DNA from: Candidatus Aenigmatarchaeota archaeon
GTDB lineage: Archaea > Aenigmatarchaeota > Aenigmatarchaeia > CG10238-14 > SCSR01
Length of the DNA stretch: 39,568 bases
Direction of reading: 5' to 3'
Assembly (NCBI GenBank): GCA_016177025.1
Contig: JACOWB010000008.1
Location: forward strand, 80,076 to 119,643
The position numbers and the translations under genes were made by a program. The notes below the pieces were generated by a model, which was given only the letters and a program-made list of their open reading frames with translations, ran no database searches and was not told the origin of the DNA. Positions 16,379 through 17,452 of this stretch are shown here, in pieces. The first letter of the stretch is position 1. The number at the start of each line of letters is the position of its first letter.

Positions 16379-17134
16379 TTATCTAAACCGACCAAGTAAT
16401 CTATTCCAAAGGCCTTGGTTGTATCTGAATTCTTTCCCAACCAGATAATGCGCTAATCTCCTCATTTCCACAGATGCAGGTGATGCAGGATTATAATCCA
16501 CGACTGCCGACCTTGCAGCCAGTGACTTTTGAACATTCATATCTTCCGGAATTTTAGCTATCACAGGATACTTGAGGAAATCCTCGATTTCAGCTGCTGA
16601 TAGCTCATCTTTTTTATTCACGCGATTGACAACAGCACCAAGTATAACCTTGTCGAGCTTCTCTGCGACTTTTGCAACCTTCAAGGCGTCCAATACAGAT
16701 GGCAGATTCGGATTTGTCAGCAAGAGTATTTCATCCGCAACTTTGAGCGATAAGGTGGCTTCTTTGCCCAAAGACGGCGCTGAATCTAATAAAATGAAAT
16801 CGGTTTTACCTAGAAGTTTCAAAGTAAAGCTGTGCAATCTATCTGCATCAACGCCAACCAAATCATTTACAGACAAACCCGCCGGCACTACTTTAAAGCC
16901 GTAAGGATGATAATACACAACTTCGTTTGCTTTCGCATCGCCACGCAGAAAATCATGCAGTGATTTTGGAACCATGTGTAATCCCAAGTGCAATCCGAGA
17001 TGAGGTGTGGTTAAATTGGCATCAATCGCAGTCACATCCTTGCCTAATTCGGTCAAAACATGGGACAGGTTTGATACTAGTGTAGTCTTTCCGACACCGC
17101 CTTTGGCGGAAGCTACAGCAATTACGCGCGTCAT
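16379..17134 (-). CDS. minD: MinD/ParA-family ATPase (archaeal MinD)
   Basis: Deviant Walker A SAKGGVGKTT, IDANL, LLDSAP, VVNRV, IPED..V. Confidence 0.9.
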   Translation of the reverse strand: MTRVIAVASAKGGVGKTTLVSNLSHVLTELGKDVTAIDANLTTPHLGLHLGLHMVPKSLHDFLRGDAKANEVVYYHPYGFKVVPAGLSVNDLVGVDADRLHSFTLKLLGKTDFILLDSAPSLGKEATLSLKVADEILLLTNPNLPSVLDALKVAKVAEKLDKVILGAVVNRVNKKDELSAAEIEDFLKYPVIAKIPEDMNVQKSLAARSAVVDYNPASPASVEMRRLAHYLVGKEFRYNQGLWNRLLGRFR

Positions 17135-17170
17135 TTAATCCTAGTTTAATTTCCGTCAGTTTAAAGGTTG

Positions 17171-17303
17171 TGACCCCGGAGGGATTTGAACCCTCGACCT
17201 TTTTAGGTAGCAATGCTATCTCCTAACTCCCAGAGGATAGAAGGTTCAGCCATTCAAGTGAGCTGCTCTTTTTGGTCATCTATCCAAGCTGAGCTACGGG
17301 GCC
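17171..17303 (-). tRNA. tRNA-Arg(UCU) with four predicted introns (17281-17270, 17259-17245, 17237-17225, 17219-17202); CCA not encoded
   Basis: Acceptor GGCCCCG/CGGGGTC-A; T-arm GAGGG-TTCAAAT-CCCTC; removing four BHB-like introns gives a 75-nt cloverleaf with anticodon loop CT-TCT-AA and A20. Confidence 0.85.
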
Positions 17304-17452
17304 TGTAATCTATAATATTTATAAACTTTAAAGTTTTATTGAATTGTAGAAATGACCTTAGTGGTTGTTGATGAGTTCAAGTAAATCGGCCAAAAGTATA
17401 ATGAGAAATGTTTTTTCTAGAACTATTTACCTAGTTTTAAATTCATTTGCAA

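Follow-up and report, generated by a model that had tools for sequence, protein, structure and literature searches.

A tRNA-Arg(UCU) gene probably interrupted by four introns in a small DPANN archaeon

Archaeal tRNA genes are described in the consulted sections of the tRNAscan-SE 2.0 paper as holding up to three introns, with 71 introns in the 46 tRNA genes of Pyrobaculum calidifontis (Thermoproteales) and with the provision that, where introns lie close together, one must leave before the motif of the next can form (PMC8450103). An October 2026 preprint, which counts insertions of 10 nt or more by computation, reports in its accessible text up to five intervening sequences per tRNA gene in Asgard archaea (bioRxiv 10.64898/2026.10.13.758758). 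Here we describe a tRNA-Arg(UCU) gene on the minus strand of a 39,568-nt stretch of DNA (hereafter the window; positions 80,076-119,643 of contig JACOWB010000008.1, assembly GCA_016177025.1) from Candidatus Aenigmatarchaeota archaeon, a small groundwater archaeon of the DPANN group. The gene holds four inserts, and we consider it likely that all of them are spliced introns of a working tRNA-Arg(UCU) gene. An earlier sequence-only reading of the locus had given three as the archaeal maximum, which stands for the peer-reviewed paper as far as its consulted text goes and does not stand against the Asgard preprint. Four introns exceed the peer-reviewed maximum of three, and the gene is an extreme case of the known multi-intron archaeal tRNA gene and not an unprecedented one, because up to five are reported for the Asgard archaea. 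Our literature search found no paper on the tRNA intron load of Aenigmatarchaeota and no four-intron DPANN tRNA, and supplementary tables could hold such cases.

With the Thermoproteales, as portrayed in the parts of the literature available to us, the locus shares short introns of the bulge-helix-bulge (BHB) type, their canonical and non-canonical positions, their close spacing and an intron-rich genome, whereas the maximum there is three against four here, the hosts are Crenarchaeota and not DPANN, and the splicing endonuclease is an alpha2-beta2 enzyme with a crenarchaeal loop where the present genome has a single 189-aa subunit. The Asgard archaea, according to excerpts of the October 2026 preprint and of Valentin-Alvarado 2024 (PMC11291895), are alike in that most tRNA genes are interrupted, D-arm introns are missed by annotators, the load is high and gain has been repeated; they differ in belonging to another superphylum and in that the genome studied here is far smaller (0.57 Mb), and the accessible preprint text mentions DPANN 0 times. 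ARMAN-2 (Ca. Micrarchaeum) is likewise DPANN, and the available passages describe for it many non-canonical introns with relaxed motifs, tRNAs missed by scanners and a tRNA-Ile(UAU) (Fujishima et al., 2011, PMC3239211; Hirata et al., 2012, PMC3488258), but its enzyme is described there as a three-unit epsilon2 protein with an ASL loop, while here one alpha-type subunit has just the basic loop beside the catalytic His, a loop shared with the Nanoarchaeum and ARMAN-2 enzymes. Nuclear tRNA genes of the red alga Cyanidioschyzon merolae are also reported to contain several short introns of the BHB type, some of them in the D loop; there the host is a eukaryote, no gene has more than three introns, and an ordered removal was shown by reverse-transcription PCR (PMC3728597).

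The sequence-only reading had proposed a 133-nt minus-strand gene with four splicing motifs, and both the gene and the motifs are borne out by the sequence: each motif lies where it had been placed, with a central helix of four pairs out of four in exact BHB register (Table 1). When the four segments (58 nt in all) are removed in silico, 75 nt are left which ARAGORN calls tRNA-Arg(tct), with a normal cloverleaf and a single mismatch, G27.A43 (window positions 17263 and 17201), in the uppermost pair of the anticodon stem. This mismatch is a conserved feature of the tRNA-Arg(UCU) and not damage, because it is kept in all 10 aligned orthologues. No CCA is encoded in exon 5, and boxes similar to the candidate promoter boxes of Table 1 also stand upstream of other tRNA genes of the genome. 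A solver of our own walked a cloverleaf template along the sequence, a jump being allowed only in BHB register, that is, with 4/4 pairing (G-U allowed) between the four bases ending two before the jump and the four ending two before the landing; when introns had to be 10 nt or longer and this full pairing was required, the four-intron tRNA-Arg(UCU) was its single solution.

Table 1. Parts of the tRNA-Arg(UCU) gene and its surroundings in the window (window position = 17304 - pre-tRNA position)
Feature	Window position	Strand	Pre-tRNA position	Length (nt)	Motif or basis
tRNA-Arg(UCU) precursor gene, five exons and four introns	17171..17303	-		133	
Exon 1, tRNA positions 1-20a: acceptor 5' strand, D-stem 5' strand, most of D loop	17282..17303	-		22	aligns with intronless orthologues
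Intron 1, D loop, 20a/21	17270..17281	-	23-34	12	TTGG/CCAA; bulges ATA, AAA
Exon 2, positions 21-30: D-stem 3' strand, nucleotide 26, anticodon-stem 27-30	17260..17269	-		10	orthologue alignments
Intron 2, 30/31	17245..17259	-	45-59	15	CAGC/GCTG; bulges TCA, AAC
Exon 3, positions 31-37, contains anticodon TCT	17238..17244	-		7	ARAGORN on spliced form; alignment
Intron 3, canonical 37/38	17225..17237	-	67-79	13	CTTC/GGAG; bulges TAT, TTA
Exon 4, positions 38-42	17220..17224	-		5	orthologue alignments
Intron 4, 42/43	17202..17219	-	85-102	18	TAGG/CCTA; bulges AGA, AAA; inner stem TAGC/GCTA
Exon 5, positions 43-73: variable loop, T arm, acceptor 3' strand, discriminator A	17171..17201	-		31	sequence, alignment
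TATA-like AT-rich boxes (candidate archaeal promoter), 13-30 nt upstream of mature 5' end	17316..17333	-			inferred

All four of the proposed exon junctions are reproduced without any use of the splicing motif. A gap-tolerant, motif-free alignment to the compact 75-nt orthologue of a related genome (G026) places insertions of 12, 15, 13 and 18 nt at the predicted sites, a MAFFT alignment of 10 orthologues shows every insert as a unit that is either present or absent, and the 87-nt gene of another relative (G004), with insert 1 only, has exons identical to the predicted mature tRNA. The relatives were sought with the 133-nt query, against 61 related genomes and then against 70 genomes of the family, and UCU loci were recovered in 18 genomes; within the genus the gene was recovered in 8 of 11 genomes, those in which it was not being G003, G008 and G010. 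The recovered genes form a graded series. Six are intronless (G007, G026, G032, G039, G044, G059), a single intron is found in the D loop in G004, G006 and G009, at 30/31 in G013 and at another place in G002 and G049, inserts 2 and 3 occur together in G073, and three introns are found in G001 (inserts 1, 2 and 3), in G005 (inserts 2, 3 and 4) and, as insertions of 12, 12 and 32 nt in a motif-free alignment with which the solver disagrees, so that the number is provisional, in G029. All four are present in the genome that contains the window (G000) and in G074, whose contig stops after precursor position 108 and so truncates the gene. Taken insert by insert, the first is present in G000, G001, G004, G006, G009 and G029 of the 10-orthologue alignment, and in G074, and absent from G005, G007, G013 and G026; the second is present in G000, G001, G005, G013, G029, G073 and G074, the third in G000, G001, G005, G073 and G074, and the fourth in G000, G005 and G074 only.

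The orthologues are tRNA genes by conventional measures as well. The intronless genes of G026, G032 and G007 score 67.3, 65.3 and 64.1 bits on the Rfam tRNA model RF00005, cloverleaf cells are paired in 93.8% of cases across the 10 orthologues, a value reached by none of 500 shuffles, and two of the seven acceptor-stem pairs show compensatory changes in the same alignment. Of the 75 cells of the splicing helices, 92% are able to pair vs 25-54% when the 3' partner is slid by one to three columns, and one clear covarying case is the third pair of the central helix of intron 2, which is GC in three sequences, GU in one and AU in one. The four-intron gene of G074 (L093:1-107, on the short contig C36, which ends inside the gene) shares 92% identity along 108 nt; its introns 3 and 4 match those of the window exactly, whereas its introns 1 and 2 do not. 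This genome is assigned to a different genus of the family, and the near-identity could be due to mis-binning, to transfer or to a very close strain.

How readily such motifs arise by chance was gauged with 20,000 shuffles in which letters moved only within their own insert. Fully paired (4/4) central helices in register arose with frequencies of 0.041, 0.011, 0.005 and 0.030 for inserts 1 to 4, and no insert was paired in 18,311 of the shuffles, one in 1,650, two at once in 39, and three or four in none of the 20,000. The four motifs are nevertheless not of one kind, and the claim of the sequence-only reading that all four inserts are of BHB type stands in the 4/4 central helices and in the flanking helix of introns 2 to 4, while insert 1 is not a complete BHB. 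Intron 2 is an hBH with an outer helix GAG/CTT (h 3 bp) and an unambiguous junction. For intron 3 the outer helix is the anticodon stem, of which the raw precursor provides 1 bp and the molecule with the other introns out 4 bp, so that it becomes an hBH once the neighbouring introns are spliced. Intron 4 is an HBh' with h' of 4 bp, and it is the only one in which both bulges are closed on both sides; the first T of its TAGG is the last base of intron 3, and its central helix drops to 3/4 when intron 3 is removed first. A flanking helix of at least two pairs is thus found in introns 2 and 4 and, after removal of the others, in intron 3. On its inner side the 5' bulge of introns 2 and 3 has only one closing pair, and the junctions of these two introns, fixed without ambiguity by the orthologues, fall exactly after the second base of the bulge. 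Intron 1 has an h of 1 bp and an h' of 0, with a 3' bulge AAA and its 5' cut site inside an 8-nt loop; lacking a flanking helix, it falls short of a full BHB and is of a relaxed, bulge-helix-loop-like form.

From the gene structure, the motif geometry, the series among the relatives and the enzyme genes, all of which can be read directly, we infer how transcription, cleavage, ligation and their order may proceed. A precursor of about 133 nt would be transcribed with all four introns in place, the endonuclease EndA would cut each intron after the second base of both 3-nt bulges that flank the 4-bp exon-intron helix, eight cuts in total per precursor, and the ligase RtcB would join the five exons to the 75-nt tRNA. 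The motifs overlap, the second central helix with the D stem, the third with the outer helix of intron 2, and the fourth with the anticodon stem and intron 3; the four cannot form all at once, and splicing is therefore probably stepwise, with introns 4 and 2 leaving before intron 3. Intron 4 would be removed ahead of intron 3, as its full helix needs the last base of the latter, and intron 2 would likewise precede intron 3, as the anticodon stem, which is the outer helix of intron 3, is contiguous only afterwards. This proposed order is taken from motif geometry, and predicted pair probabilities agree with helices 1 and 2 (0.25-0.99) and partly with helix 4 (0.23-0.46 while intron 3 is present), not with helix 3.

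Several lines of evidence indicate that the locus is real DNA under constraint. Three runs, which belong to two studies and are possibly the source of this DNA, yield contigs of 12.9, 7.2 and 1.5 kb with 0 differences across the locus, and one run also has a contig with the G004-like form, that is, with insert 1 only. A 636-nt contig from a third study (run X7) has 0 substitutions within the 133-nt gene, together with 25 differences in 135 nt downstream (window 17033-17167) and 4 in 50 nt upstream, so that conservation in this relative is equal in introns and exons; the diverged downstream stretch consists of intergenic DNA and the start of a 251-aa open reading frame (ORF) on the minus strand (16379-17134). 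The genome, of 571 kb in 23 contigs and 86% complete, also has an evident use for the tRNA, AGA and AGG making up 49.8% and 28.2% (together 78%) of the 5,786 Arg codons counted in 342 ORFs that are 200 codons or longer. The tRNA-Arg genes of our census are GCG, TCG and this UCU gene. Another tRNA-Arg(UCU), for which the sequence-only reading had advised a search, was not found in this partial census of an 86% complete genome: no second UCU or CCU gene stood among the loci that the solver resolved, and a scan for an intact UCU or CCU anticodon arm beside a T arm gave 11 matches, in none of which was the T arm tRNA-like or the acceptor stem solvable.

The expectation that standard scanners may overlook or misname the gene proved right for both ARAGORN and the Rfam tRNA model. 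In its default mode ARAGORN reports 0 tRNA genes in the whole window, and Rfam at gathering score gives 0 matches in it; a permissive Rfam scan of the locus (E up to 10) yields just chance-level fragments around the T arm, and in a scan of the whole genome the locus is a 15.5-bit T-arm fragment covering model positions 43-63 only. The intron mode of ARAGORN calls the locus a tRNA-Pro(ggg) with one 37-nt intron, which is a wrong call.

A number of observations weigh against a working gene with four spliced introns. None of the RNA sequencing runs that were searched contains the locus. Covariation in the splicing helices is thin, as only two pairs are changed on both sides, which 97 of 500 shuffles equal and which is not significant. 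The stability of the precursor fold is ordinary (z = -1.53), helix 3 at 37/38 has a pair probability of at most 0.03 in every splicing intermediate, and in the last intermediate the fold that combines the cloverleaf with the 37/38 motif lies 5.6 kcal/mol above the minimum (-30.9 vs -36.5). In the EndA of the genome the catalytic Tyr119 and His135 align, and the position of the triad Lys is Ala, vs Lys in all five aligned PDB enzymes. Moreover, an EndA of the single-subunit kind would be unusual for such a task, as older work, in its accessible part, held it to be strict for the canonical BHB (Fujishima et al., 2011, PMC3239211). To these are added the points that feed particular alternatives. 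The weak motif of intron 1, without a flanking helix, would be scored as not BHB-like by the classifier of the 2026 preprint, as described in its available text (10.64898/2026.10.13.758758), and its central helix is reduced to 3/4 in three relatives, G006, G074 and, in a shifted register, G001. It might on these grounds be supposed that the endonuclease splices only the inserts at 30/31, 37/38 and 42/43, and that the 12-nt D-loop insert is retained as an enlarged D loop or otherwise removed, which we regard as unlikely. A retained insert 1 would tie up G18 and G19 in its helix, and these two bases are needed for the contact between D loop and T loop. Furthermore, each orthologue either has the insert as a clean unit or lacks it altogether, its helix has a pair probability of 0.44-0.96 in the precursor states, a tRNA-Ile(TAT) of the same genome has an intron with a 4/4 helix at the same place, and D-arm introns are, according to the text consulted of the preprint, common in other intron-rich archaea and often missed by annotators (10.64898/2026.10.13.758758).

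That the whole locus might be a decaying tRNA pseudogene with insertions, AGA and AGG being read by a tRNA encoded on the unassembled 14%, is suggested by the failure of the standard scanners, by the absence of the locus from the RNA runs searched and by the incompleteness of the genome, in which a second tRNA-Arg(UCU) may yet lie elsewhere. We hold this to be very improbable, given exons that are identical to those of G004 and nearly so to those of the intronless orthologues, inserts each of which stands in exact splicing register, the 0 substitutions in 133 nt vs 25 of 135 downstream in the relative, the recovered UCU genes of relatives with subsets of the same inserts, and the large share of AGA and AGG among the Arg codons. 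The count of four could finally be an artefact, either of mis-assembly or of a solution in which fewer and different introns give the real tRNA, and it is true that the solver, when allowed introns down to 9 nt, finds seven further cloverleaf solutions with three to four introns. These, however, have two stem mismatches, odd non-Arg anticodons or long variable arms of 10-16 nt, and they conflict with the orthologue alignment, while mis-assembly would have to be repeated in the contigs of 12.9, 7.2 and 1.5 kb, which carry the same sequence in three runs; such an artefact is hardly credible. A working gene with four spliced introns accordingly remains our preferred account of the locus.

The enzymes that would act on the precursor are each encoded once as far as we could see. 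A single EndA gene of 189 aa (PF02778 and PF01974, 97 bits) is found outside the window, at L061:145-714 on the minus strand of contig C14, a tblastn search of the 86%-complete genome reveals no other copy at E below 0.7, and there is one RtcB gene (543 bits). The first match of this EndA among PDB structures is 5x89 (1.8e-31) and the second 1a79 (E 2.3e-31), the alpha4 EndA of M. jannaschii, to whose subunit it is most similar. With this enzyme it shares a single subunit of about 180 aa, an N-terminal and a catalytic domain and the lack of a paralogue, and it differs in having Ala for the triad Lys and a basic insertion between the catalytic Tyr and His. Its relatives, with 50-95% identity over the best aligned segment, are labelled Candidatus Aenigmatarchaeota or uncultured archaeon. 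The position of the triad Lys is Ala, Thr or Ser in 16 of 16 clade members aligned, in which the basic loop (GVK.K.G.KAAHEH) is invariant. The positions of the Tyr-His-Lys triad are taken from the M. jannaschii enzyme. Between the catalytic Tyr and His the protein has a Lys/Arg-rich insertion of six residues, which aligns gapless with 3iey_A, presumably the catalytic subunit of the Nanoarchaeum equitans enzyme, and nearly so with 4fz2 of ARMAN-2; this insertion may correspond to L3. In the accessible text of Hirata et al., 2012 (PMC3488258), which also gives the triad numbering for the ARMAN-2 enzyme, the NEQ and ARMAN-2 enzymes share a loop beside the catalytic His, and the ARMAN-2 exchanges K241A and K244A did not abolish cleavage.

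The tRNA-Arg(UCU) gene belongs to a set of tRNA genes in which introns are the rule. Our census is partial, the memoised solver having processed 398 of 457 candidates of at most 240 nt with 35 time-outs, the genes were not individually validated, tRNAs with introns in the T arm or the acceptor stem are invisible to it, and its anticodons differ from those of ARAGORN at a few loci (for example C15:7276 and C15:28035). Within these bounds, introns are found in 18 of 22 solved tRNA genes, 25 introns in total, with none in 4 genes, one in 13, two in 4 and four in the present gene only. The tRNA-Ile(TAT) at C2:3344-3455 has a 15-nt intron at the D-loop position of intron 1, with a 4/4 helix, and the tRNA-Lys(CTT) at C22:22645-22731 is interrupted at 30/31 by a 13-nt intron whose exon context (GCAGCTC) and 3' end (GCTGAA) are those of intron 2. 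Such likenesses could be due to common descent, to movement from gene to gene or to a convergence that the helix imposes. Comparable cases occur in relatives. A tRNA-Arg(CCT) of G025 (L040) has an 11-nt intron at the D-loop position of intron 1, and tRNA-Lys genes of 163 nt in G010 (L043), 189 nt in G036 (L060) and 116 nt in G053 (L041) are likewise enlarged. According to the solver those of G010 and G053 have three introns each, the gene of G036 being ambiguous (5,684 solutions), and by eye the introns of G053 and G036 lie near 30/31, 37/38 and 42/43, the places of introns 2 to 4.

Neither ARAGORN nor the solver recognised a tRNA-Thr, His, Cys, Glu, Ile(GAU) or Gly(GCC) in the genome, where Infernal loci were not all given anticodons. 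These tRNAs may be heavily disrupted, may have introns in the T arm or the acceptor stem, or may be encoded in the missing 14%. A perfect T arm followed by the acceptor 3' strand, with tRNA-like pieces upstream, stands at a contig start (C13:1-90, plus strand); it is the sole one of 27 strong T-arm signatures outside known tRNA loci, and probably represents a further interrupted tRNA gene, truncated at the contig boundary.

Four introns in a 75-nt RNA also exceed the three for which curated tools provide, and a gene missed by the scanners would leave this genome seemingly without a tRNA for half of its Arg codons. In the available text of Kaneta et al., 2018, the suspicion is raised that incomplete tRNA sets of DPANN archaea hide heavily disrupted genes, and the four-intron gene supports this suspicion. 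With zero to four introns in one gene among close relatives, the family also offers a natural series for studying the gain and loss of tRNA introns. Tentatively, and with more doubt than confidence, we suggest that in this clade a single-subunit EndA with a rebuilt active site may serve tRNA genes that are nearly all interrupted, among them a four-intron gene whose D-loop motif is relaxed; the basic loop could then provide the charge that is missing and broaden the specificity as well. If this is true, the series from zero to four introns, found in species of a single family, would document as it happens how rapidly tRNA introns come and go, and similar Arg and Lys tRNA genes may exchange introns too. 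On the four-intron reading itself, an alpha4-like EndA without the usual catalytic lysine would have to cut eight sites per precursor, two of them in a relaxed motif, which makes the enzyme an enzymological puzzle.

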